Source: a virus
Direction: 5' to 3' (one strand)
DNA: 30,381 nt
Virus genome (UHGV): UHGV-0119412
In this document: positions 50 to 28,912 of the stretch, piece after piece
How positions within the stretch are numbered: the first letter of the stretch is position 1
How the letters are laid out: each line of letters starts with the position of its first letter
Program-made: the position numbers and the translations under genes
Notes under the pieces: generated by a model
The model's database searches: none
Told to the model about the DNA's origin: nothing
The model's input: only the letters and a program-made list of their open reading frames with translations

Positions 50-1219
50 TCACTCCTCATTTTCTTCTGAGCTGTACTCCACATCGGAGAGTTTAACCTC
101 AAGCTCTAAGCCCGTCGTGAAACCGTTATTATTGAGGTTGTGGGTCACCTTGCTGATTAACCATGCCTGCTCGTCTATGACGCGCTTAAAGCCTGACACG
201 CGTACAGGCGTCTCAGGAATTAAATCCGCTCGCCCTAGCGCCAGTGTGATTGAAAACTCCGCAACGCCTCGCTGCAGTTTATCCCACTTAGCCTGAGCGG
301 CGCGCATCGCCTGTGCCTTTGAGGCATAGACCGTCGTCAGCGCCAGCACGTTATCGGCTTCACCGGCCATGTACTCACCCTCACGAGCCTCCTGCTCTTT
401 TTTGGCCTTTGTCTTTTTGCTGACAGGCTTTGCTTTCGGGTGCTCCAGTGCGCGTAGGTGTTTCTCTTTTGGCTGGCGTTTCAGCGTCACTTTTTGCTTT
501 TGCGGCTTCGGGTCTTTGGTGTGCAACCATTTTGCCGTTACGCCGGTATAAGCCCCACGGTCGGCAATAGCAAATTGATGACGGTCACCATTGCTACGGG
601 TCAGCGTCATTTGCGGGATGGGTCTGCCGCTGGCCGTCATCGCACTACCGGCTTTCAGAAACAGCAATTTCCCCGCTTTCACTGACACCGCAGCTCCGTT
701 TCGGTCAGCTAGCCGGGTCAGAAACACCGCGTCGGACTCCTGCGACTGGTCGATATGCGGTACCGGGATTTTTTTCAGTGAATCAGCGACACTGGCCGTC
801 AGTTTATTGCGTTTTGCGATGGTGCTGACCAGTTCTCCGATGGTGGTGTCATGCCATGACTCTTCACGCCTGGAATTTAGCGTGCCGCGAAAGTCCGCGC
901 TGCGCGCCCGGATGGTCAGGGTGTCAGGCGTTCCCCGGTGCTCAATCTCATCGACCGTAAAATCCCCCTTATTCAGCAACGCCGAGCCCTGCCAGCCAAG
1001 CCACAGCGTCAGCACTGCCCCGCGCAGGGGTAACTCAACTTTCCCGTCGGTATCATCAAGCTCAATATCGAGCTGGTCAGCCTCAAAACCCCGGTTATCG
1101 GTCATGGTGAGAGAAATCAATCGGTCACTAAAATTGCTGGTAATGTCCTGGCTGTTCAGCGTCAACATAAATGCCGGTGCAAGGCTGGCACTGGCGTCAA
1201 TTGGCATCCCCGTTATCAT
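50..1219 (-). CDS. D: P2-family tail protein D (gpD)
   Basis: 389-aa ORF; size and position (last gene of the FI-FII-E-T-U-D tail operon, overlapping U by 4 nt) match P2 gpD (387 aa). Confidence 0.85.
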   Translation of the reverse strand: MITGMPIDASASLAPAFMLTLNSQDITSNFSDRLISLTMTDNRGFEADQLDIELDDTDGKVELPLRGAVLTLWLGWQGSALLNKGDFTVDEIEHRGTPDTLTIRARSADFRGTLNSRREESWHDTTIGELVSTIAKRNKLTASVADSLKKIPVPHIDQSQESDAVFLTRLADRNGAAVSVKAGKLLFLKAGSAMTASGRPIPQMTLTRSNGDRHQFAIADRGAYTGVTAKWLHTKDPKPQKQKVTLKRQPKEKHLRALEHPKAKPVSKKTKAKKEQEAREGEYMAGEADNVLALTTVYASKAQAMRAAQAKWDKLQRGVAEFSITLALGRADLIPETPVRVSGFKRVIDEQAWLISKVTHNLNNNGFTTGLELEVKLSDVEYSSEENEE

Positions 1220-1701
1220 GCAGTGAAACCTCCGGGCATACCCTGCAGTTTATCTGTCAAATTACCGGCAGAGCCGAGAAGCTCACTGGCCTGTTTATTC
1301 AGGTCACCAAACATCTCTGTCAGCGATTCATCAACCCGTTTTAGCGAAAGCGTGAAATCAATCTTTCTGGCCGCACCATCACTGAAAAACTCGGTGCGTG
1401 TAGTCGATACTTTATCGACGATATACATCCCGAGGATATTTCCGGTTCCCTCTATCAACGGCCACGCTCTGCCTTCATTGGCCATCACCTCTACAGCCTT
1501 TAGTGAGATCCAACCGCCAGTGATAGCGGGGTATAGCGTACCAGCAAGCTGTATAGAGGTTTCCCCCTCGCCAAGAAACTGATAGGCAGGTGGTTTACCC
1601 ACCCGGTCATTGGACACCCAGCGATAATCTTTCGAATGCTGCATCGACTGGTAAGGCAGGGTGCGAAGTTCAAACACAAACATTCCGAGAGCAAGCATCA
1701 T
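1216..1701 (-). CDS. U: P2-family tail protein U (gpU)
   Basis: 161-aa ORF immediately downstream of the tape measure gene and overlapping D; P2 gpU is 159 aa. Confidence 0.85.
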   Translation of the reverse strand: MMLALGMFVFELRTLPYQSMQHSKDYRWVSNDRVGKPPAYQFLGEGETSIQLAGTLYPAITGGWISLKAVEVMANEGRAWPLIEGTGNILGMYIVDKVSTTRTEFFSDGAARKIDFTLSLKRVDESLTEMFGDLNKQASELLGSAGNLTDKLQGMPGGFTA

Positions 1702-1714
1702 CGTTTAATCCCCC

Positions 1715-4159
1715 TCAATAGTCGTGGGTCATGTTGGCACGCTGGCGGGCGCGTTTATCGCGCTCAATCTGTTCGAGCGTGTCGCGTAGTTGTCTGTCAA
1801 GCTGATGCCCCGGCGCAACACCTCCCGGCAGATTGATGTTGTATTCGCTTTTGCTCTGGTCAATGTAAGAGCGCCCCGCCGGTGCGGTAACTGGCTGATA
1901 AGCCTGATAGCCGCCATATGTGCTGGTTGCCGGGATGTAGGAATTACCCTGTGTGGCGGCATTGGTTTTGGCGGCGGTCTTGTCGAGGCTGTCCGACTCT
2001 TTGTTGATGATGCCGAGCTTTTCGAGAAGCCAGTCGACACCGCTGCGCAGCTTGTTAAAAACATTGAGCGGAGCCATCAAGGCAGAGGCCAGTGCCTGAC
2101 CAAATATGACGCCGACATTTTTGCAGCTATCAAGCGTTTCCTGCGTGGCCTTAACCGGTGCTATCAGGTCTTTAAACCACTGCCAGACGCCGCGCAGTTT
2201 CTCGCCGAGACCATCAAAAATGGGAGCCAGTGGAGCTAACATTTCCCCGACTGGGGCAAAGGCACTCATGATGCCTTCAATCACTCCCGAGAAAAATGCG
2301 CTGATGGGCTCCCAATATTTACGGATGAGTAGCGCCCCCGCCACAATCGCCGCACCGACGGCCACTATCGGCCAGGTAATCGCACCGAGCGCTGTCGCAA
2401 TGGCACTACCGACGACAGTAAAGACCGTACCCAGCACGCCAGCAGCGGCGATAATTGCATTAATCCCCATGACAACCGGCCACGCAACGAGACCAATGCC
2501 GCCGATGATACCAATCAGCGCCAGCGCACCACCGGCGATGATGCCGATAGTTTCCGCTAACTCCTTGTTGTCTTTGATCCAGTCATCAAGCTTTAGCACA
2601 TACCGTGTTGCTGTCTGAGTTAGCTGACGCAATGAGCTATCTTGCTGGTCATAGAGGTCAGTGCCGACCGCCTCATATGCTGACTGGAACTCCTTGAAGT
2701 CGCCGCCGAGGTTATCCTGCATAACCTTGACCAGCTCCTCTGTTTTACCGTCTGAATCCTTTATCGTGGCAGTTAGCTTATCGAGTTTTCCGCTTGCCGC
2801 TGCCGCCATAAGGACACTTGCAGACTTCATAGCCTCCTCGCCGAATATCGTTTTCACGTACTCGGCCTTTTGTGAGGTACCAAGATTGTTGCGCTTAAAA
2901 CTGGCCTGCATTTCTTTCAGGATGGTAAATAGCGGGCGCGTATTGCCTTTGCTGTCTGAGGTTTTAACTCCCAGCTCTTTGAGAGCATCGTATGCTTTGC
3001 CTGTGGGTGCCTGTAGTCTCGTTATAACAGCAGCGCCGCCAGTCCCAGCCATTGACCCCCTGATGTTATTATCATGAAGTGTGCCGGTAATCGCCGCCGC
3101 CTGTTCAAGACTCACCCCAGCATTTTTCGCAACAGGGGCAAGGTAACTTAATGAGTCACTTAGTCCCTGAAAATCAGCGGTGGTTTTGTTCATCGTGGTT
3201 GAAAGAACATCACCGATATGCGCAGCCGCGTCATTAGAAAGTTGAAAGGCGGCTTTTGTCCCCATCAACAGTTGCGCGTTTTCCTCCATTGTTTTTTTGT
3301 TTGCAAGCGACAGGTTGAGAGTCACAGGTGTCATGGCCGCTATAGCCGCCGCATCACCACCACCTTTTGCAATGATAATCTGCGCACTGGCTGCATCATC
3401 AGCAGAAGCGGCTGTATTGTCACCGAGCTGGCGCGCCTGTTTGCGTAACGCCTGCATTTCTGGCGACTGCTTATCGACCCCGAGCACAGCCTGCAGCTCG
3501 GAGTTTTTTTGCGCAAAGTCATAACCGGGCATCAGCAATTTAACCCCGGCCATCGTTCCCGCTGTCGCAATACCGACCCCGGCAGCACCTGCAGCGGCCA
3601 TGTTACCGGCAAGCTCCTTACCCGATTTATATCGCTCTTTCACTCGGTTTAGGTGCGCCTGCTGTGCGCTGACCTTCGCCAATGCTTCACGCTGCCGGTT
3701 GAGCTGCGCCGTCGTCTCGCTGATACGTGTTTTAAGCCCCCGCTCATCGTTTGCCAGATTGCGGGTATTGATACCGGCGGCACCCAGCTCGCGTTGCTGG
3801 CGTTTAACCGACTCGGTGAGGCTGTTGTATTTAACCTGCAGCCCCTCGGCGGCACGTTTTGCGGATTCGAGCACCTGTGCCTGCGCTCGCGTCGGGCGCT
3901 CAGTATTTTTGAATTGCGTGGCAAGCGCTTCAGCCTCGCGCTTTGCCTTCTCCAGCGACTGGCCGGTTACGGCCAGTTGAGCGCTGGTTTTGCGAAAGCC
4001 GTCGATTTTCGCGGCCTGCCCGTTCAGGTCACGCAGCCCTTTTTGTGTGTCGCGAATATCGCCCGACAGGGTTTTACTCGCGGTCTGGATGGATTTAAGC
4101 GGTCGGGTCGCCTGGTCGACCGCTTTCAGCAAAACCTCAAGTCTCAGGTTATTACTCAT
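1715..4159 (-). CDS. T: Tail tape measure protein (gpT)
   Basis: 814-aa ORF with a coiled-coil-like Ala/Gln/Leu-rich N-terminus and Gly/Ala-rich hydrophobic segments; P2 gpT is 815 aa; follows E/E'. Confidence 0.9.
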   Translation of the reverse strand: MSNNLRLEVLLKAVDQATRPLKSIQTASKTLSGDIRDTQKGLRDLNGQAAKIDGFRKTSAQLAVTGQSLEKAKREAEALATQFKNTERPTRAQAQVLESAKRAAEGLQVKYNSLTESVKRQQRELGAAGINTRNLANDERGLKTRISETTAQLNRQREALAKVSAQQAHLNRVKERYKSGKELAGNMAAAGAAGVGIATAGTMAGVKLLMPGYDFAQKNSELQAVLGVDKQSPEMQALRKQARQLGDNTAASADDAASAQIIIAKGGGDAAAIAAMTPVTLNLSLANKKTMEENAQLLMGTKAAFQLSNDAAAHIGDVLSTTMNKTTADFQGLSDSLSYLAPVAKNAGVSLEQAAAITGTLHDNNIRGSMAGTGGAAVITRLQAPTGKAYDALKELGVKTSDSKGNTRPLFTILKEMQASFKRNNLGTSQKAEYVKTIFGEEAMKSASVLMAAAASGKLDKLTATIKDSDGKTEELVKVMQDNLGGDFKEFQSAYEAVGTDLYDQQDSSLRQLTQTATRYVLKLDDWIKDNKELAETIGIIAGGALALIGIIGGIGLVAWPVVMGINAIIAAAGVLGTVFTVVGSAIATALGAITWPIVAVGAAIVAGALLIRKYWEPISAFFSGVIEGIMSAFAPVGEMLAPLAPIFDGLGEKLRGVWQWFKDLIAPVKATQETLDSCKNVGVIFGQALASALMAPLNVFNKLRSGVDWLLEKLGIINKESDSLDKTAAKTNAATQGNSYIPATSTYGGYQAYQPVTAPAGRSYIDQSKSEYNINLPGGVAPGHQLDRQLRDTLEQIERDKRARQRANMTHDY

Positions 4160-4639
4160 TGTGGTGTCCGCTACGCTGCAGCGCCTTTTCGCGCCATGTG
4201 ATGAGCTCGGTCAGGCTCAGGGAATAGAGATCTGATAGCGGCCAGTGGAATATCACCGCGATATCCGCCATCAGGTCATCGGTCGACAGGTCGGGCGGGA
4301 AATCTACTCCGCCGAAGCCGGTGACAAAAAACCAATCACCTTAGCGGCCAGCGACAGCATATCGGGCAGGTTCATTGCGGTAAGCTCCTGCGCCGTAAGC
4401 GCGGGGTAGGTCATGCGTGGCAATACCTTAATCAGCGCATCGACTTCGGACTGCGCCACCGCTGCCAGACTGACACCGCGCAGGGTACCGGCGTTCGGCT
4501 CAATCAGTGTGACTTTATCAATCGTCTGACCGGCGCGCTTAATCGGCTTGTCGAGGGTCACGACGTTCGGGTTTACGGTGTCAATTTCATTGCCAGCCAT
4601 ATCAACAAATTCAGCGGTTTTACGTGGTGCTTTTGCCAT
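4152..4639 (-). CDS. gpE+E' extended product by programmed -1 frameshift
   Basis: Hand translation of the -1 frame after the slippery run (minus strand, about 4325-4333) is open for about 58 codons (...FVTGFGGVDFPPDLSTDDLMADIAVIFHWPLSDLYSLSLTELITWREKALQRSGHHNE) and stops at a TAA overlapping the T start codon, as in the P2 E/E' arrangement. Confidence 0.55.
4304..4639 (-). CDS. E: Tail assembly chaperone gpE
   Basis: 111-aa ORF between FII and T; ends just after a GGTTTTTTG slippery run; the true start may be the internal Met (MAGNEI...). Confidence 0.75.
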   Translation of the reverse strand: MAKAPRKTAEFVDMAGNEIDTVNPNVVTLDKPIKRAGQTIDKVTLIEPNAGTLRGVSLAAVAQSEVDALIKVLPRMTYPALTAQELTAMNLPDMLSLAAKVIGFLSPASAE

Positions 4640-5236: not shown

Positions 5237-6415
5237 TTAGCTGTTGACCGATTCGGCCAGATTCACCAGATATTTATCGGTGATACGCTGGCGCAGGGTT
5301 AGGCTTTCCAGTGGTGGAACCGGTGTATAGTTGTAGTCGATATACAGTTTCCCGGCCTTGAGGGTTTCCTTATCGTTCGATTCCTCGTCGAACCAGCATT
5401 CACCGTCCACGATGTAGCCGTTTGATTTCAGCTCGCGGAATTTGGCGTTAATACCGTCGACAATGTCACGGATAAGCGATGCGGTGATGGGCTTATCGAC
5501 CGCCCACATGTGCGCCTCGGCCATCGTGTCGGCCAGCACCTGCGCGGTGCGGGTGTAGTTCTCAAACAGGAAAAGCGGGTCATCAGAGCAGGTGCGGTTA
5601 CCCCAAAAGCGGAAGCCATCCTTACGCACCAGTGTCGTGACCCCGGCCTCGTTGAGCAGATCAGCATCGGTGCCGGATGCCTGCAAATCCCAAAACACTG
5701 ACGCACTGATGCCGGTAACACCCTGCACGCCGACGTTAGACAGGGTTTTGTGCCAGCCGACGGTCTGGTCGATATAGGCACGCAGGCCGAGTGCGCGCGC
5801 GGTGGCGTAGGCTGTTGCGGTGGCGTTCGCGGTGGTGTTCCATGCGAGGAAATCAGGCCAGATAAGCATCAGTTCGCGCTGGCTGAAATTCTCGCGATAG
5901 GTCATCGCCTCGGAAATAGTCTTACAGCCCCATGCACTGACATAGCCAAAGGCGCGCAGGCTGATACAGACCGACGCAAGTGCGACTGCGACCTCTTTGG
6001 TATCGAGCCCCGGCACGCCGAGAATGCGCGGCTTAACACCGGTGACCGCTTCGGCAGTCAACAGCGCCTTGATACCGGTGTATTTACCGTTCTCATCCGT
6101 GCCGCCGATGATATTGGAAATGGTCTGCGCTTCCGCGTCTTCTCCGGTACCTTCGGCAACACGCACGACAACGGTGACGGGCTTTGACTGGTCGGCGATG
6201 GCCTGCAGGGAGGCAGACAGCGTGCCTTTTTTACCGGCTTTCGCAATGGCGCTCTGCACATTGGTAATCAGTACCGGCTCGTTGAGGGGAAATGTCGCGG
6301 CATCCGCATCGCTGGCCGTGCAGACCATGCCGACGATTGCAGTCGCGACCGTAGAAATAACACGCGTACCGTCATTGATTTCGATGACCTGCGTGCCGTG
6401 GTGAAAATCACTCAT
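5237..6415 (-). CDS. FI: Contractile tail sheath protein (gpFI)
   Basis: 392-aa ORF, first gene of the FI-FII-E-T-U-D operon; P2 FI is 396 aa. Confidence 0.9.
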   Translation of the reverse strand: MSDFHHGTQVIEINDGTRVISTVATAIVGMVCTASDADAATFPLNEPVLITNVQSAIAKAGKKGTLSASLQAIADQSKPVTVVVRVAEGTGEDAEAQTISNIIGGTDENGKYTGIKALLTAEAVTGVKPRILGVPGLDTKEVAVALASVCISLRAFGYVSAWGCKTISEAMTYRENFSQRELMLIWPDFLAWNTTANATATAYATARALGLRAYIDQTVGWHKTLSNVGVQGVTGISASVFWDLQASGTDADLLNEAGVTTLVRKDGFRFWGNRTCSDDPLFLFENYTRTAQVLADTMAEAHMWAVDKPITASLIRDIVDGINAKFRELKSNGYIVDGECWFDEESNDKETLKAGKLYIDYNYTPVPPLESLTLRQRITDKYLVNLAESVNS

Positions 6416-6515
6416 CCGGTTAACTCCGTGGTTAGTGGGCGAGTGTTATTGTCCTGACTGGTCTGGTGAGGGGCTATTTATCGGCGATGGATGGCTGATG
6501 GCACATAAACAAATC

Positions 6516-6542
6516 ATAAAAAAGACGGGCATCTGCCCGCCC
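6516..6542 (-). terminator. Rho-independent terminator downstream of the tail fibre chaperone gene
   Basis: On the minus strand a GC stem (CGGGCA-GA-TGCCCG) is followed by TCTTTTTTAT; it lies in the 130-nt gap between the chaperone gene and FI. Confidence 0.55.
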
Positions 6543-6546
6543 TGCG

Positions 6547-6972
6547 TTATTCCGGTTTAACCGGCCACTCAATATCCGGTGCCGTGGTGGTGTCGACCGC
6601 GTTCAGCGCCTGAATATATTTCATCCACGCAATCAGGCTGGCCTTGTCATCGTCGCTGATGATGTCGAGCTGCAGCTCAGTCTGCCACAGGCTGATTGTC
6701 GACTGCGCTTCATTAAGTAATACACCTCTCTTTCTTTCTGCATCAGCAGCCAACTCCTCAGGAGAAGGCAACGGAATATCCAGCCATACGGGATAACCAT
6801 TCTCATCCACCCCTCTTACTTTTCCCTCTGGTGGCTCCTGCATAAAATCATCGGCAATATTTCCGTCAATTTCTATTCCATCATCAGGCCATGTGCCTGA
6901 TTGTTCATAAGCTGCCTTCAGCGCAATCGGGAAGAATGCATTTTTTTTAGCACTAAATACATAAGTCTGCAT
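6547..6972 (-). CDS. Tail fibre assembly chaperone (gpG/Tfa-like)
   Basis: 141-aa ORF immediately downstream of the tail fibre gene (1-nt gap); acidic; AT-richer than the phage core. Confidence 0.7.
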   Translation of the reverse strand: MQTYVFSAKKNAFFPIALKAAYEQSGTWPDDGIEIDGNIADDFMQEPPEGKVRGVDENGYPVWLDIPLPSPEELAADAERKRGVLLNEAQSTISLWQTELQLDIISDDDKASLIAWMKYIQALNAVDTTTAPDIEWPVKPE

Positions 6973-6973
6973 T

Positions 6974-7939
6974 TTATCGCCCTATGGAAATATAACTAAA
7001 ACGGAAATTCTGAGCGTTATCACTTGCCGCAATACGCCACGATGAATTGCTGATGTGTTCGAAGTTAACAGCAAGTACAGGTGTAGTTGGTGCCGTGGGA
7101 TTTGACTGCACAGCATCGGACATAATGCTGACTGAAACCAGTGGCTGATTTGGAAACGGTATCGGAAAATTTCCACTGATAAAACGCGTTGTATTACCTG
7201 CATAGGTTCCGAATTGCACAACATGCCCGCTTGGCAACTTAAACCATCCGCTTCCTGAAGCAAATGCCCCCATATCCGGCACTTGATTCGCCGCAGTCCC
7301 CACATCTCTCTTAGCCGCCTCTTTAAGACCCAAATTTTGCAAAATTTGGCTTACCAGACCGGCATCAACCATTTCTTTAAGCGCGTTCGCAATCAATGGG
7401 TACTGCTTATGTGGATTGGCGGCCTCAACATGTTTTTTCATCAGGTCATCAGCATATCCTTTCACCTCGATAATCTTGTCGTCGACATACTGGCGCGTTG
7501 CCAGCACGACTGCCGGGTCGATTTTCAGGGTGATTGCCGATGTGCTCGACACAATCAGAATCATGCGAATGGTCTGCGTGCGACCGCTTCCCTCCTGCAG
7601 TTGTGGCTTGTAGGTCTCCGGACAGTTCGCCACGGCAATCAGAATACCATCATCGTCATAGAGACCAATCTCGCGGATCCAGAAACCACCTTCATTCTCG
7701 GGAATAATCTGTTCCGCGATAATCTGACTGGTATTGGCCGGGTCAACGGTCAGCAGGTTCAGCGGCGCGATGCGTTTCTGGTTAATGAGCTTCGTCTGCG
7801 CCGGGTCAGGGGTCGGCAACGTACCATTCGCATCACCGACGGCCATCTGCGTCAGGTTGAGTTTGGTACCGAGTGCCGCCGCGTTCGCCAGCCGCGCCGC
7901 GCCCTGATTGGTCAGAATGGCAAAATATTTTGCGGTCAT
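6974..7939 (-). CDS. Tail fibre protein, gpH-type N-terminal domain with a short divergent C-terminal domain
   Basis: 321-aa ORF whose N-terminus (MTAKYFAILTNQGAARLANA...MAVGD...GGFWIREIGLYDDDGILIAVAN...YKPQLQEGSGRTQTIRMILIVSS) matches the conserved baseplate-binding domain of P2 gpH as recalled; it is much shorter than P2 gpH (669 aa). Confidence 0.8.
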   Translation of the reverse strand: MTAKYFAILTNQGAARLANAAALGTKLNLTQMAVGDANGTLPTPDPAQTKLINQKRIAPLNLLTVDPANTSQIIAEQIIPENEGGFWIREIGLYDDDGILIAVANCPETYKPQLQEGSGRTQTIRMILIVSSTSAITLKIDPAVVLATRQYVDDKIIEVKGYADDLMKKHVEAANPHKQYPLIANALKEMVDAGLVSQILQNLGLKEAAKRDVGTAANQVPDMGAFASGSGWFKLPSGHVVQFGTYAGNTTRFISGNFPIPFPNQPLVSVSIMSDAVQSNPTAPTTPVLAVNFEHISNSSWRIAASDNAQNFRFSYISIGR

Positions 7940-8544
7940 GCGTTCACTCTCAGATTATCAATCAAATGGATGGCCGAGGCCGGGTAATATTCACCGCCGA
8001 CGACAATCTCCTCGGGGGTGTAGGGGTAAACAGTCAGCGCGTCGCCGTGATAGCATCCCGCGCCGACATACAGTTCGCCGGTCGAGCTCAGACTGATAGC
8101 CAGCCCGGTCAGGTGGCGACTTGCCGGTTTGGCGTCTTCAATCAGTCGCTCAAGCTCCTGATACATTTCGTCAGTGATGCCGCTGTCGAGGACGCCAACA
8201 ACGAGGCGGAATGTGCCTGGCTCCTCGTCGAGTTGCCACCACTCGCGCACCTCAATCAGAAAGCCGAGCGGCTCGACGACCCGACGCAATGCGCTGATGG
8301 TGCCTTTGTGCTGATGGACGAAAAACGAGGACGCGCAGACGCTGCGCTTTGTCGCCTCCGGCCATTTCTCATCCCACCTGTCGACCGACAGCGCCCACGC
8401 CAGATACGGCAGCAGCTTTACCGGGCAGGTGCGCCAGTTCCACAGGGTGCGCAGCGGTACCGGCACGCGCTGAATCTTAGAGAACGCAGCGGCGGCGGCG
8501 ACCTCCAGCGGCGACGAGCCAACGGGTAATAGCCGGTCATTCAT
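7936..8544 (-). CDS. I: Baseplate protein gpI
   Basis: 202-aa ORF between J and the fibre gene, overlapping both by a few nt; position matches P2 gpI. Confidence 0.75.
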   Translation of the reverse strand: MNDRLLPVGSSPLEVAAAAAFSKIQRVPVPLRTLWNWRTCPVKLLPYLAWALSVDRWDEKWPEATKRSVCASSFFVHQHKGTISALRRVVEPLGFLIEVREWWQLDEEPGTFRLVVGVLDSGITDEMYQELERLIEDAKPASRHLTGLAISLSSTGELYVGAGCYHGDALTVYPYTPEEIVVGGEYYPASAIHLIDNLRVNA

Positions 8545-10437: not shown

Positions 10438-10568
10438 AGAATGCCGATTGTTAATGCCAAGAGCAAAACGATTCAGCTGTATGCTCTTCTACACAATTCG
10501 GTGTGCATTCATGTATCATTTGAGTGTTGAATCATTCGAAAATCACACAAAACATATGGCAGGTAGTA

Positions 10569-11405
10569 ATGAAAAGAACTTCATCTTTTAGGCGTACAAT
10601 AAGCAATATGAAATATATTATAGGTATCTTTTTTTTATACTCCGGGCTTATAGTAGGGTTGTCTGTTTATAATGATAACTACAACTCAAAATTCATGGAG
10701 AATTTTCTTGTTAATGCAAATTCTTCAATTTTAGACTTTCTTGTTTTGGGTGTGATTCTTTACTATTTTGAAAATAAAAGGCAAAATAAAGATGCTATTC
10801 ACGAACTAATTGAAGATCTTGAAAATCTGGCAAAGCATTCTTCTGCAGAACTGAATATTATGAAGATAAAAATCATACGTCAGTTAAATGCCAAAGGAAT
10901 ATATAACATTCAAGTTCCAAGGATTGAACTTGATAAAATGTCCACTATCAAATATTTACATTTTAAAGACGCTGACTTAACCGGCTTGAATATGAGTGAA
11001 TCATACATTAGAGATTGTTCTTTCGATAATTGCACAATTCAAGCTCTAAATATTACAGGCAATAGAGTTAAGAGTGTTAAATTCAAAAACTGCAAGCTAA
11101 GAAATATTAAGGCATTTAATACATGTTTTCAAAATGTTACTTTCGAAAACTGCAGTTTTGAAGGGGGGTATTTTACAGATAGCGAAATGAAAAGCTGCAT
11201 ATTAAAAGGATGTGATTTTAAATCCGTTACTTATGAAGGGGCTAACATGCGGAATGCAAATCTATTAAATTCAATTAACATTAGCGTTAAAGAACTTGTT
11301 AAAGCAAAAAACATAGATTATTTAATTTGTGATGAGCAAATTAAAAATGAAATAAGAAAGGAAAACCCAGCAATAAAAATATCTAGAGGAATAATACGAG
11401 GTTAG
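10569..11405 (+). CDS. Membrane-anchored pentapeptide-repeat protein (cargo/moron)
   Basis: Plus-strand ORF on the strand opposite to its neighbours, clearly AT-rich. Start chosen at the ATG at 10569, preceded by AGGT (the track ORF begins at a GTG at 10524). N-terminal hydrophobic helix (YIIGIFFLYSGLIVGLSVY) then tandem A(D/N)LxX-type pentapeptide repeats (DADLTGLNMSESYIRDCSFDNCTIQALNITGNRVKSVKFKNCKLRNIKAFNTCFQNVTFENCSFEGGYF...). Confidence 0.7.
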   Translation: MKRTSSFRRTISNMKYIIGIFFLYSGLIVGLSVYNDNYNSKFMENFLVNANSSILDFLVLGVILYYFENKRQNKDAIHELIEDLENLAKHSSAELNIMKIKIIRQLNAKGIYNIQVPRIELDKMSTIKYLHFKDADLTGLNMSESYIRDCSFDNCTIQALNITGNRVKSVKFKNCKLRNIKAFNTCFQNVTFENCSFEGGYFTDSEMKSCILKGCDFKSVTYEGANMRNANLLNSINISVKELVKAKNIDYLICDEQIKNEIRKENPAIKISRGIIRG

Positions 11406-20331: not shown

Positions 20332-21336
20332 ATGGGCGCGGAGATTAATATTTTGGAAACTGATTTTAAAATAACCCTCGAAGGTTTCGCTACTGAGCAA
20401 GAAGCAAATAATATCGGTAATTTCACACTAGAAGCTATCCGAGCTTTAACAAAAAATCTCAATCTTGATATCTCCAAATTAAAATGCGTGATTGTTTCCT
20501 ATAACTTCAGTGAAGCTCTTCAAAAGGTAACATCCTCTTACCAACACAAATCCCCTAGTTCGTTTACCAATAGCAAACAGGGCGCAGCCGTCGGGCAGTT
20601 AGTAACAAAAATTGGCAATGATGGGCTATGTGAAGAATATACCCTTGTGCTATCGATTGATTTTTTTGTTGAGCTTTTCAATGATGGTAGCTTCTTAAAA
20701 CTGAAAGAAGAAGGATACCTCGCAGTCATCCATCGCATTCACCATGAATTAGTGCACGTACATGAAAAAAACTTACTAACATGCTTAGCCCAAAACTTTA
20801 CAGTCAACGAGTATGGTAGCGCGCTTCTTATCTCAGCCACGCGTGCATGGTCTGAATATCTCGCTAATTACATGTCTTCGGGGTCTGCCCCTCAAGAAAC
20901 TATCGATTTATTTTTAGAGAATCTTGACACTGTTGTAAATGAAGTATCTGACGAGATTGAAAAACTCATCTGGGGTTATAAGTACGGTAATATTTCTCTG
21001 AATGACATGTATCTCGAAGTAAAAAAACGTATCAGGCTAATCATCAACTCTTATGCTTATGCGATGGGTTATGTCCATTCTCTAAACATCAATATTAAAG
21101 AATACGATCCAAAGCTATCCCTTACACTATCCAACTCAAAGATAAGATATCAATTATCAGAATTAGGCATTGCTTTTCAGAATCTTTATGGGAAGTTTAA
21201 TGACCAGCACATTACAGGTTTTGGTGATTTTCGGGAGATAACAATAATCATTGATGAAATATTCAAGCAGTTTGGGCTTGTTTTAGAGTGTCCCGATTGG
21301 TCTGGCGACGGTGAACTCTACATACATGTAAATTAG
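20332..21336 (+). CDS. Hypothetical cargo protein with HExxH...NE motif (putative zinc-metallopeptidase-like), between portal and cos
   Basis: 334-aa AT-rich ORF. HHELVH at about nt 20740-20757, with NEYGS about 17 residues later, resembles the gluzincin HExxH-x(n)-E pattern. No obvious Shine-Dalgarno before the first ATG. Confidence 0.6.
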   Translation: MGAEINILETDFKITLEGFATEQEANNIGNFTLEAIRALTKNLNLDISKLKCVIVSYNFSEALQKVTSSYQHKSPSSFTNSKQGAAVGQLVTKIGNDGLCEEYTLVLSIDFFVELFNDGSFLKLKEEGYLAVIHRIHHELVHVHEKNLLTCLAQNFTVNEYGSALLISATRAWSEYLANYMSSGSAPQETIDLFLENLDTVVNEVSDEIEKLIWGYKYGNISLNDMYLEVKKRIRLIINSYAYAMGYVHSLNINIKEYDPKLSLTLSNSKIRYQLSELGIAFQNLYGKFNDQHITGFGDFREITIIIDEIFKQFGLVLECPDWSGDGELYIHVN

Positions 21337-21555
21337 TTTAATCATAGTAGAAACATAATTAGCAGTTTGAATCCTGCCACTCCTGTAAAGCCGCTGCTCC
21401 TGGTGGCTTTTCCATGCACACCACCATCACGCATCAGATGCGTCTCACGCGCACGAACACACCCGACCACCAACGAACCAGCAGCGACCACGACAGCGCC
21501 ATCACGACGCGCTCAGAGGATAATTTTTATTATTACGCATCACTGCTGGCGCGCA

Positions 21556-21574
21556 ATGCTTTCCCCGCCACGCC
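21556..21574. other. cos site (19-nt cohesive-end sequence, 186-type)
   Basis: The plus strand reads ATGCTTTCCCCGCCACGCC, whose reverse complement GGCGTGGCGGGGAAAGCAT matches the 186 cohesive end as I recall it (P2 differs at two positions); it lies in a GC-rich non-coding stretch between Q and the replication region, as expected. Confidence 0.6.
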
Positions 21575-21772
21575 TGCCCGCTTTATGGGGCGGTTTTAAT
21601 GCAGTTGCATGACCACTCTGGATCCCCGCCAGCTCTTGCGGCGCACGTACAAAACGGGTAATCCCGGCGCATGCAGAACCATGCACCTGTTGCATGCACA
21701 GCTTATTTATTGATAAATCACCTTAAATTTACAAAAATTACGGACATTGGTTCTTTCCAAACATGATAGCCT

Positions 21773-21788
21773 CTCGATAATTATCGAG
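21773..21788. promoter_or_regulatory. Perfect 16-bp palindrome CTCGATAATTATCGAG upstream of the 313-aa cargo gene (putative operator overlapping a -10-like GATAAT)
   Basis: Seen directly; ends about 14 nt before the GGAG Shine-Dalgarno of the ORF starting at 21812. Confidence 0.4.
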
Positions 21789-21811
21789 CCTATTTTTGAA
21801 CGGAGAAAGAT

Positions 21812-22753
21812 ATGCAAGGTGAAGTTGACGAACAGCAACCCAATGAGATTATGTCGGAGTTTGGATACTATCCAGTAGAAGTTAACATTGAGACTGAACA
21901 ATTTTCTTTGCTTACTTTACCTGGTCTCAATGAGAAAGTGGAGCGTGTTAACAATGATAAAAACGTTGTGAAAGGTTGGATATACCCTGGAAACCAAGAT
22001 GTATATAACCTTAATGGTGGCATATCCACAATGCCTTATAGTCACCGTGTATTCAGTATGCCCAAAACGCACACACTAAAATTAAAAAATACATCCTCGT
22101 TAGAAACTCTCAACTTTATTGTGTGGTGCCTTTCTTTTTTCAAGGGAATAAGATTGACAACCACTGACGCTGGTTTTTTAGATGCAACCACTATCAAGCC
22201 CACTAAGTTAACCGACTTTATTCTCGTTGGATGCTCTGAAAAAGAAATCATAGAACTGGCTCTTAATTATATAAATGGCAAACATAAGGATGCGCACTCC
22301 CCCAAAAGAATTGCGGCAGTGGTGCATGCACTATTCTTATCTCAAAACCCACAATACCTTTCTTTTGAAAAATTCCAGTACCTTTACATGGCACTTGATG
22401 GGTGCTTTGCTTTGTCGTGGGCTGAGCATGACAAGGCTCCTGATAAAAAACCGCCAAATCATTACAAGCGATTAAAGTGGATGTGCAAAATTTATGGGTT
22501 ATCAATTCCCACATGGGTGTCAGGTAAAAAAAACATTTCTGGCATCCGCAATGATAATTTTCATGAGGCTATTTTTTTTGGTCAACCGCTTGGTTTCTCA
22601 AGTATTAACAACAGTCAATATGGTAACGATATATTGCTGCAAATGCAGGCACTGGTATGTCGCCTATTAGCGGCAATACTGTCGGTTAATGATTGCAGTT
22701 ATCTCAAATCTTCGGTCAACTCACGAGATTACCATTCATTAAAAATAAATTAA
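21812..22753 (+). CDS. Hypothetical cargo protein with HEPN-like RNxxxH motif (candidate abortive-infection/defence RNase)
   Basis: 313-aa AT-rich ORF with a good Shine-Dalgarno (GGAGAAAGA) and the motif GIRNDNFHEAIFFG (about nt 22546-22563); it sits where P2 carries old/tin, between cos and the replication module. Confidence 0.65.
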   Translation: MQGEVDEQQPNEIMSEFGYYPVEVNIETEQFSLLTLPGLNEKVERVNNDKNVVKGWIYPGNQDVYNLNGGISTMPYSHRVFSMPKTHTLKLKNTSSLETLNFIVWCLSFFKGIRLTTTDAGFLDATTIKPTKLTDFILVGCSEKEIIELALNYINGKHKDAHSPKRIAAVVHALFLSQNPQYLSFEKFQYLYMALDGCFALSWAEHDKAPDKKPPNHYKRLKWMCKIYGLSIPTWVSGKKNISGIRNDNFHEAIFFGQPLGFSSINNSQYGNDILLQMQALVCRLLAAILSVNDCSYLKSSVNSRDYHSLKIN

Positions 22754-22760
22754 TACTAAC

Positions 22761-22823
22761 GCCTCGCGGTGCTCGTTGTTCAATCCCCGCCAGTACTGAA
22801 AGCGAGTTTCAGAACCGGCGGCG
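22761..22823. repeat. Copy 1 of a ~63-nt imperfect direct repeat with an internal short palindrome
   Basis: GCCTCGCGGTGCTCGTTGTTCAATCCCCGCCAGTACTGAAAGCGAGTTTCAG..., similar to the copy at 23167; internal palindrome CTGAAA..TTTCAG. Confidence 0.4.
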
Positions 22824-22827
22824 TTTG

Positions 22828-23037
22828 CTATCGTCGACGTGGTGGTGGTGCGTATTGTTTCGACCTGCTGATGCTATCCAGCTTGCCGTAATTATCCCTG
22901 ACTATTTCGGCACACCCGACCAGCTCTGCGGGTGTCAAATTCTCATTGACCATTATCTGCTGCAAACGATGAACGATGGCCATCAGTTTGATGCTTTTAG
23001 TTTTGTGCTGCGGTATTTCACCTGGTAGTCGATGCAT
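22828..23037 (-). CDS. Small hypothetical protein (69 aa)
   Basis: ATG preceded by GAGGGTG at appropriate spacing; lies between the two direct-repeat copies; no recognisable motif. Confidence 0.4.
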   Translation of the reverse strand: MHRLPGEIPQHKTKSIKLMAIVHRLQQIMVNENLTPAELVGCAEIVRDNYGKLDSISRSKQYAPPPRRR

Positions 23038-28051: not shown

Positions 28052-28912
28052 ATGAGTTCTGAGCTTGATGTTCAGTGGCGTGTTAGTGCAACGAACGGCG
28101 TATTGGAACGCTTAATGTCAGCCTATGGGGTCAAGATGCAAAAGGATTTGGCTGACCTGCTAGGTATCGCTAAACACAGCGTTAGCGGCTGGGTTCAGCG
28201 TGATGCAATACCTGGCAATGTCATAGTTAGGTGTTGTCTTGACACGGGAGCTGATATCAATTGGCTTGTAAATGGAGAGCTTGCAAATGCAAATCACGAG
28301 CGAGCCAGTTGCAAGTTAAAAGGCAAAGAGCTTTATGACGAGATTATGACGAATGGTGGTAAAACCGTTTTGCGTAGGATTCTTGATGCGTATGGCTTTA
28401 CCATGCAAAAGGAGCTCGGTGATTTGCTCGGCATTTCCTCTGGCACAATTAGCACATGGGTAAGGCGAGATTTTTTCCCTGGTGATGTTGTTGTTACATG
28501 CGCTCTTGATACCGATACGTCACTGGAATGGTTAGCAACAGGCAAGGGGCAAATGCGAGCTAACAGGGAAGATGTCACATCTGGTTTTTCAATTAAAAAA
28601 TCTCGTCTTGAATCTGGTGAGCTTAAGGATGCAGGAACGTGGCATCCTGACCCCTCAATGATTCCTTCTAACTCAGGGGAATTGATTTTTGTTGACGGTG
28701 TAGCTGCCTCTTGGCTTGTCGACTGTTCTGCTTCGAATATAAGTAATGGTCGCTGGTTAATTGATATCGACGGCGCTCTTGATGTTTTTGATGTAATTCG
28801 TTTACCTGGTGGAAAAGTCAGGTTGTCAAATAAGTCTGCTGAGTTTGAATGCAACATTACCGACATTACGCCTGCCGGGGTTGTAGTTTTCACATTGGAA
28901 AAACACGTATAA
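28052..28912 (+). CDS. cI: CI-type immunity repressor with a tandemly duplicated N-terminal HTH domain
   Basis: 286-aa ORF. Two homologous segments (...LERLMSAYGVKMQKDLADLLGIAKHSVSGWVQRDAIPGNVIVRCCLDTGADINWLVNGE and ...LRRILDAYGFTMQKELGDLLGISSGTISTWVRRDFFPGDVVVTCALDTDTSLEWLATGK) are followed by a C-terminal domain; upstream of int and divergent from the lytic operon. Confidence 0.75.
   Translation: MSSELDVQWRVSATNGVLERLMSAYGVKMQKDLADLLGIAKHSVSGWVQRDAIPGNVIVRCCLDTGADINWLVNGELANANHERASCKLKGKELYDEIMTNGGKTVLRRILDAYGFTMQKELGDLLGISSGTISTWVRRDFFPGDVVVTCALDTDTSLEWLATGKGQMRANREDVTSGFSIKKSRLESGELKDAGTWHPDPSMIPSNSGELIFVDGVAASWLVDCSASNISNGRWLIDIDGALDVFDVIRLPGGKVRLSNKSAEFECNITDITPAGVVVFTLEKHV

Follow-up and report, generated by a model that had tools for sequence, protein, structure and literature searches.

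In this prophage, a 186-like (Eganvirus-type) member of the P2 family, the tail fibre gene and the assembly chaperone gene that follows it very probably make up a minimal, functional module into which a single AT-rich cassette has been recombined. The exchanged block (6712..7400, 45% GC) comprises the distal part of the fibre shaft, the fibre head and the N-terminal domain of the chaperone. It is an uncharacterised new allele of a well-understood kind of module, and the event behind it is an ordinary modular exchange of a tail fibre with its chaperone. Throughout the text, the window refers to the whole stretch of DNA that was analysed, 30,381 nucleotides in length.

The window matches the chromosome of E. 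coli N56 (NZ_CM165908.1) at 100% identity, and RefSeq gives both open reading frames the same annotation there as here. It contains a prophage of the P2 family with its late genes on the minus strand, arranged in the order D, U, T, E, FII, FI (the sheath gene, 5237-6415), Tfa, fibre, I, J, W and V. Beyond V lie a plus-strand pentapeptide-repeat gene and then S, R, the lysis and head genes, Q/P and cargo, and the prophage also carries a replication gene A, a 186-type CI repressor and an integrase. Judged by sequence similarity, the backbone is of the 186/Eganvirus type. DNA identity over I and the fibre N-terminus is 93-99% to Midge, vB_EcoM-613R3, EtG and several E. coli prophages; for the backbone it is 85% with the Eganvirus phages of Yersinia and 79% with P2-like phages.

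The fibre gene occupies the position between the gpI and Tfa (gpG) homologues of a V-W-J-I-H-G late operon, with the Tail_P2_I gene upstream (7936-8544) and the Caudo_TAP gene downstream (6547-6972). The genes are closely packed: 4 nt at the fibre start are shared with the stop of the gpI homologue, and the fibre stop falls 1 nt before the ATG of the chaperone. The operon ends at an intrinsic terminator homologous to t45 of phage 186 (6522..6543, minus strand). Next to it is an intergenic region (6416..6521, minus strand) that is the homologue of the phage 186 B-activator site and of the late promoter pJ for the sheath operon, with the B-site homologue placed at ~6488-6507. Only 131 bp separate the Tfa stop from the sheath start, and this short spacer holds both the strong terminator and the B-site and pJ homologues.

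The fibre gene (6974..7939, minus strand), a homologue of P2 H and 186 K, encodes 321 aa. A sequence-only reading of the same DNA had placed both this frame and the 141-aa chaperone frame (6547-6972, minus strand) exactly, and it had further proposed that the fibre keeps the N-terminal anchoring domain of gpH. The latter proposal is borne out by the Phage_tail_fib profile (PF12571), which matches fibre aa 1-150 (7490..7939, minus strand) over its full length (profile positions 1-150 of 150, E 8e-63, 211 bits against a cut-off of 23) and marks the conserved N-terminal baseplate-attachment domain. It is followed at aa 151-233 (7241..7489, minus strand) by a shaft or 'handle', predicted to be helical with low confidence, and by the linker NLGLKEAAKRDVG. 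The remainder, aa 234-321 (6977..7240, minus strand), is a gp53-like C-terminal beta 'head', presumed to be a receptor-binding domain of the lectin type. Here the Gp53-like_C profile (PF21882) is matched over positions 1-84 of 84, with 33.2 bits against a cut-off of 24.9.

Structural comparisons of the head were made with profiles as well as with a model. While a single-sequence search of PDB sequences with the fibre returned nothing at E <= 1, a profile of the head family matched a short tail fibre (9zd7, E 3.7e-8) and AP22 gp53 (4MTM, 3e-6), and also the R1 and R2 pyocin fibres (1.5e-4 to 2.4e-3). An AlphaFold model of fibre aa 150-321 as a monomer, built from a 43-sequence alignment, consisted of helices followed by a beta domain at a mean pLDDT of 54, and the top Foldseek matches of this low-confidence model were R-pyocin fibres and lectins. 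Because of the low confidence of the model, the fold proposed for the head rests mainly on the profile matches, with the model as weak corroboration.

The chaperone gene (6547..6972, minus strand) encodes a tail fibre assembly protein (Tfa) of 141 aa, homologous to P2 G. It was assigned to Caudo_TAP (PF02413, E 9e-37) in Pfam, and both fibre and Tfa were also assigned by PHROG. The AlphaFold model of Tfa is of high confidence (pLDDT 92.6) and consists of an alpha/beta domain (aa 1-65), a linker (aa 66-70) and a helical hairpin (aa 71-124) with helices at 71-101 and 107-124, both with pLDDT above 90. We distinguish an alpha/beta N-domain (aa 1-70; 6763..6972, minus strand), which is AT-rich, linked to the cassette and presumed to bind the fibre tip, from a conserved helical-hairpin C-domain with core-like GC (aa 71-141; 6550..6762, minus strand). 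Foldseek of the Tfa model against the PDB gave nothing significant; by sequence, the C-domain aligns to residues 108-175 at the C-terminus of Mu Tfa, also called U (5YVQ_B, E 1e-6). Mu Tfa, seen together with the fibre S in 5YVQ, is likewise a two-domain protein, with a variable N-domain that co-varies with the fibre tip. The N-domain in the window is smaller than that of Mu Tfa (~65 aa) and is without a significant fold match in the PDB.

Pairwise BLAST combined with sliding identity resolved the two genes into five segments with different nearest relatives. Fibre aa 1-166 are 96-100% identical to the Eganvirus-type backbones 613R3, AST217, Midge and EtG. The next segment, aa 167-205, is 82-90% identical to AST217, 613R3 and Midge, and at most 14 of its residues can be aligned with EtG or P2-like fibres. 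From aa 206 to the end of the fibre at aa 321, the closest relatives are the C-terminus of the SKA5 'side tail fibre' (Stf) and the AST217 fibre (75-77%); identity to Midge and 613R3 is only 33-48%, and no similarity to the EtG, P2 or 186 fibres was found. Within the chaperone, aa 1-73 share 63-64% identity with the Tfa encoded downstream of those cassettes in SKA5, AST217 and MET_P1. For aa 74-141, identity is 80% with EtG Tfa, 85-91% with a 198-aa Tfa type that is widespread, and only 33-34% with SKA5 and AST217. The distal fibre and the Tfa N-domain therefore differ from the fibre N-terminus in closest relatives, as they do in composition, and the swapped module that had been proposed from the sequence is supported: relatives and composition change along the fibre, from Eganvirus-type at aa 1-166 to SKA5-like at aa 206-321. 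By the same comparisons the chaperone is itself chimeric, with aa 1-73 travelling with the fibre head and aa 74-141 core-like and belonging to a different Tfa lineage.

The limits of the exchange could be placed on both sides. On the left, silent differences from the nearest backbones start at ~7395-7410, in the fibre shaft, and on the right identity is regained at ~6698-6721, so that the exchanged block extends over ~6712-7400. In the high-confidence Tfa model, the right junction falls on the interdomain linker. Outside the cassette's own allele, the nearest relatives reach 72-73% identity in DNA and at most 83% in protein. A donor search for the head among species-representative genomes gave only distant partial matches, at 32-54% identity and mostly in Photorhabdus.

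Identities to the head and to the Tfa N-domain track each other across six relatives, and the Tfa C-domain is uncoupled from both. The paired head and N-domain values are those given above for SKA5 and AST217, 48% and 41% for 613R3, and 33% and 34% for Midge, with no identity in either domain for EtG. The C-domain reaches 34% in 613R3, 47% in Midge and its highest value in EtG. In the account of Tfa modularity by North et al. 2019, as relayed in PMC9608196, the non-conserved N-domain binds the C-terminal region of the fibre and the conserved helical C-domain trimerises. The pattern of co-variation matches this published model, in which the variable N-domain binds and the conserved C-domain trimerises.

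Base composition follows the same boundaries. The block at ~6712-7400 has 45-46% GC and a GC3 of 0.36-0.41. A GC profile was in line with this: the cassette at 6755-7322 (568 bp) has 46.0% GC against 56.6% (sd 3.2) for the late-gene core (z = -3.4), the comparison being made with 665 same-size segments of that core, the lowest of which has 49.1% GC. At third codon positions, GC is 0.405 for fibre aa 206-321 and 0.356 for Tfa aa 1-73, compared to 0.59-0.74 for most core genes and 0.51 for the lowest of them, U. Fibre aa 1-166 are backbone-like (GC 0.556, GC3 0.67). The earlier claim that the fibre C-terminal region and the chaperone are AT-richer than the phage core held for the distal fibre and for Tfa aa 1-73, but not for Tfa aa 74-141, which are core-like (GC 0.525, GC3 0.618); GC recovers halfway through the chaperone gene. 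Low GC at silent sites is confined to the cassette, and the homologous cassettes of SKA5, AST217 and MET_P1 have 46% GC as well.

In this family, fibre tips and chaperones are generally rich in AT, the distal third of P2 H and the P2 G gene (43-44% GC) among them. This suggests a general property of fibre tips, and the low GC could in principle reflect amino-acid composition or local selection on the tip instead of foreign origin. We regard such an explanation as extremely improbable, since the GC drop is strongest at third codon positions and stops mid-chaperone, exactly where the nearest relatives change, and since the cassette and its flanks differ in divergence time. The last point comes from a Salmonella Banana prophage that carries the same allele. 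Third-position differences between the two number 10 of 217 in the cassette and 41 of 245 in the flanks (Fisher p 2.4e-5), with dS at 0.00-0.09 in the cassette and 0.27 outside it. The cassette has thus had a history separate from that of its flanks. Throughout the region dN/dS is 0.04-0.2, a sign of purifying selection. The exact fibre and Tfa proteins were found on ~50 contigs, and variants at least 90% identical occur in Salmonella Typhimurium, Typhi, Enteritidis and Banana; the Banana prophage that was inspected has the same gene arrangement.

The spread and conservation of the allele also bear on the length of the fibre. At 321 aa against the 669 aa of P2 gpH (48%), the fibre is indeed about half as long, as the sequence-only reading had noted, and it is shorter than 186 K (462 aa) too. 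Given that the element is known only as a prophage, the gene could be taken for a truncated, defective derivative of a fibre of ~460-670 aa in a decaying prophage. We rejected this truncation or pseudogene reading, which is largely refuted and has very little probability left: each of the two Pfam domains of the fibre is matched over its full length, the neighbouring I and G genes are intact and closely coupled to the fibre gene, the dN/dS values argue against a truncated fibre, and the allele has been conserved in E. coli as well as in Salmonella. Fibres of the same length class are moreover found in plaque-forming phages, namely Midge (324 aa), EtG (327 aa) and RCIP0057 (326 aa), and other members with the same backbone have fibres of 320 aa (613R3), 321 aa (AST217), 327 aa (D3) and 342 aa (81EVA). 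Longer fibres, besides those of 186 and P2, are those of the Yersinia members (620 aa). A fibre of ~320 aa is usual in this clade, plaque-forming phages included, and the shortness did not come from the swap described here.

Homologues of the cassette are found in invertible segments in AST217, 613R3, Salmonella phage MET_P1_103_31, the Mu/e14-like SKA5 and a P2-like phage of O157:H43. Each of these segments also holds a second, inverted cassette and is accompanied by a flanking DNA invertase gene. Inverted repeats CTTCTCCCAAACCAAGGTTT(T) flank the invertible segments of the relatives, and the same crossover sequence has been reported for the P segment of e14 (PMC12529663). A decayed homologue of a Pin/Gin/Cin-type inversion crossover site is present in the window at 7318..7338, where it reads CCTCTTTAAGACCCAAATTTT compared to CTTCTCCCAAACCAAGGTTTT in the relatives. 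Such relics are known, since phage 186 K bears an annotated vestigial 'Mu-like inversion crossover site'. The crossover site itself, TTCTCCCAAACCAAGGTTT, had no match anywhere in the window with up to 3 mismatches allowed, and neither a flanking inverted repeat nor an inverted partner site was found there. The window is also free of a serine invertase gene, and among its ORFs there is no inverse, promoterless cassette of fibre tip and Tfa; in the relatives, the invertase and alternative cassettes lie between Tfa and the sheath. A junction lying exactly at the crossover motif was considered and rejected, as the silent differences begin 60-70 bp upstream of it.

The P-segment-type Stf/Tfa cassette of Escherichia phage SKA5, which comes with a DNA invertase, is among the known systems closest to the window cassette. 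Its head and Tfa N-domain are homologous to those of the window as one unit (72% in DNA, 77% in the head and 64% in the Tfa N-domain), and SKA5-type cassettes have the same linker motif holding the crossover site and the same 46% GC. In e14/Mu-like elements, the cassette sits on a Mu-type N-terminal part of ~100 aa and can be switched, whereas in the window it is joined to a P2-type N-terminus and a different Tfa C-domain and is fixed. The invertible arrangement of e14 is stfP-tfaP/tfaE-stfE-pinE. We use 'e14-like' for the cassette architecture and the SKA5-type alleles and not for K-12 e14 itself, which was rejected as a close relative: StfP gave no BLAST match and TfaP is 30% identical.

Could the locus then be the frozen remnant of a host-range switch of the Pin/Gin/Cin type? 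In its ancestor, the stretch from H to the sheath would have housed an invertase along with a pair of alternative cassettes, and the invertase, the second cassette and the crossover sites would have been lost later. AST217 and 613R3, the closest backbones, have just such an arrangement (fibre, Tfa, inverted Tfa', inverted fibre fragment, invertase), and the window retains a degenerate yet recognisable crossover motif at the homologous position, for which the vestigial site of 186 K offers a parallel. We nevertheless consider this history unlikely. The window's Tfa C-domain and its 131-bp terminator/promoter spacer are of the non-invertible D3/EtG/186 type, with 89% identity over 6300-6711, and the AST217-type Tfa C-domain is the one with only 33-34% identity to that of the window. 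A clean deletion that leads to the present structure is hard to envisage from invertible segments, in which the Tfa genes are convergent and overlap. With the left junction 60-70 bp away from the motif, and with the Tfa C-domain and spacer of the D3/EtG/186 type, import of a cassette into a non-invertible backbone is the simplest explanation and simpler than a frozen switch, though further back in time the one history would not preclude the other.

Compared to the classical systems of the Peduoviridae, P2 gpH/gpG and 186 K/orf-Tfa, the window is alike in the gene order V-W-J-I-H-G and in the terminator, late promoter and sheath that follow. It also shares with them the Phage_tail_fib N-terminus, the Caudo_TAP C-domain in Tfa and AT-rich distal parts, and identities at its fibre N-terminus are 49% with P2 H (aa 26-186) and 47% with 186 K (aa 1-186). 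The window Tfa is shorter, at 141 aa versus 175 aa in P2 and 166 aa in 186, and its N-domain is unrelated to theirs. The head has no detectable similarity to the P2 or 186 head, and on this ground it is reasonable to infer a host range that differs from those of P2 and 186, as had been suggested earlier.

The short-fibre Eganvirus types (the Escherichia phages Midge and 613R3, Erwinia phage EtG, Klebsiella phage RCIP0057 and the E. coli prophages AST217, D3 and 81EVA) share the backbone, with fibres of 320-342 aa. A gp53-like head is likewise the terminal domain of the Midge and 613R3 fibres, and the Midge-type head belongs to its own family of e14-like and invertible-segment relatives. Apart from the AST217 fibre compared above, the head alleles of the Eganvirus-type relatives have 33-48% identity to the window head or none. 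AST217 and 613R3 further differ from the window in having an invertase and alternative cassettes, and D3 and EtG in carrying the 198-aa Tfa in place of one of 141 aa.

In AP22 gp53 (4MTM) and the R1/R2 pyocin fibres (6CL5, 6CL6, 6CXB, 6CT8), a lectin-like beta head ends a short trimeric shaft. The window head is related to these by profile and by the fold of a low-confidence model, with a sequence identity of only ~22-23%. R-pyocin fibres bind LPS core sugars, which suggests a carbohydrate, probably in LPS, as the receptor for the window head as well. Domain identities, composition, breakpoints, the separate past of the cassette and purifying selection are demonstrated here; by analogy with the work on Mu, AP22 and R-pyocins, we infer such a receptor, an altered host range and a division of labour between the two chaperone domains. 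The C-terminal fragment of AP22 gp53 (gp53C) forms a trimer shaped like a club, in which a coiled coil serves as the handle and the head has a lectin fold; glycerol and ethylene glycol bind to this head as sugar surrogates (bioRxiv 10.1101/518761). In the same study, AP22 gp53 did not inhibit infection in the published assay, and its role in infection was not demonstrated (bioRxiv 10.1101/518761); for this reason a gp53-like head is no proof of a primary receptor-binding role.

According to the explanation that we favour, a functional module with one imported cassette, the N-terminal domain of the fibre (aa 1-150) would dock to the baseplate and be followed by a short helical shaft, and the gp53/R-pyocin-type lectin-like head (aa ~234-321) would recognise a surface carbohydrate, most likely in LPS. 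The variable N-domain of Tfa (aa 1-70) would grip that particular head, and the conserved helical C-domain (aa 71-141) would drive trimerisation from the C-terminus. Homologous recombination in the conserved flanks would have imported one AT-rich cassette (~6712-7400), with its left junction in the fibre shaft some 60-70 bp upstream of the old inversion crossover motif and its right junction at the Tfa interdomain linker. Elsewhere the cassette family is carried in Pin/Gin/Cin-type invertible segments; here it has one fixed orientation and would confer a single specificity.

A broader scheme can be imagined, although we hold it to be a long shot. The conserved linker with the crossover motif (NLGL[G/K]EAAK) and the Tfa interdomain linker might form a standard pair of 'ports' through which cassettes of head and Tfa N-domain pass between unrelated chassis of the Mu/e14 type and the P2/186 type, with invertases acting in trans sometimes catalysing the capture. 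The window cassette would then have been captured recently and fixed since, and the receptor of its allele would be common to E. coli and Salmonella.

Cassette swapping is a well-known route by which phages change host specificity, and the present case adds no new principle to it. It does provide a clean natural example of the rule used in host-range engineering of phages and tailocins: the exchangeable unit is the fibre tip together with only the N-terminal domain of the chaperone, and the junctions lie in the shaft and in the Tfa interdomain linker. The practical value is modest, and consists in a compact allele of a 321-aa fibre and a 141-aa Tfa, present in E. coli and Salmonella prophages, that is a candidate retargeting cassette.

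When the fibre region of the window (6400-7939) was compared with that of a Salmonella Banana prophage carrying the same allele of the fibre and of Tfa, the tail fibre assembly protein, no synonymous differences were found in the region encoding the Tfa N-terminal domain. Since the flanks of the same pair have a dS of approximately 0.27, the comparison implies that the cassette was exchanged across genera, between E. coli and Salmonella, very recently.

In the two nearest backbones, the fibre-sheath gene interval holds an invertible fibre-tip switch, complete or decaying. It lies at 886-3629 in the prophage of E. coli AST217 and at 2055-4586 in phage vB_EcoM-613R3. The recombinase of AST217 carries a frameshift and the invertase of 613R3 has just 104 aa, so that decay of the switch seems to be under way in several lineages.

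Elsewhere in the window, the CI-type repressor ORF (28052-28912, plus strand; Pfam Phage_CI_repr) encodes 286 aa, more than a 186-type CI would be expected to have, and the Phage_CI_repr helix-turn-helix domain matched two stretches of it in Pfam. The extra length may reflect an upstream start codon chosen by the ORF finder, or a duplication of the helix-turn-helix domain.

An AT-rich block (20332-23028, plus strand, 38-40% GC) containing three ORFs of 334, 313 and 111 aa is flanked by the portal gene Q and the replication gene A. In P2-family phages, this position is a hotspot for cargo and anti-phage genes. Pfam and PADLOC searches with the three ORFs returned no matches.

A 30% GC gene for a 293-aa pentapeptide-repeat protein (10524-11405, plus strand) is inserted between V (spike) and S (tail completion), on the strand opposite to both. 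The same moron is carried by vB_EcoM-613R3, where it is labelled 'YjcF'. The protein matched PHROG 12514 (E 2e-142), and its N-terminal ~100 aa had weak PADLOC matches (E 7e-5) to DRT-associated proteins, in their SLATT domains. This gene may serve in lysogenic conversion or in defence.
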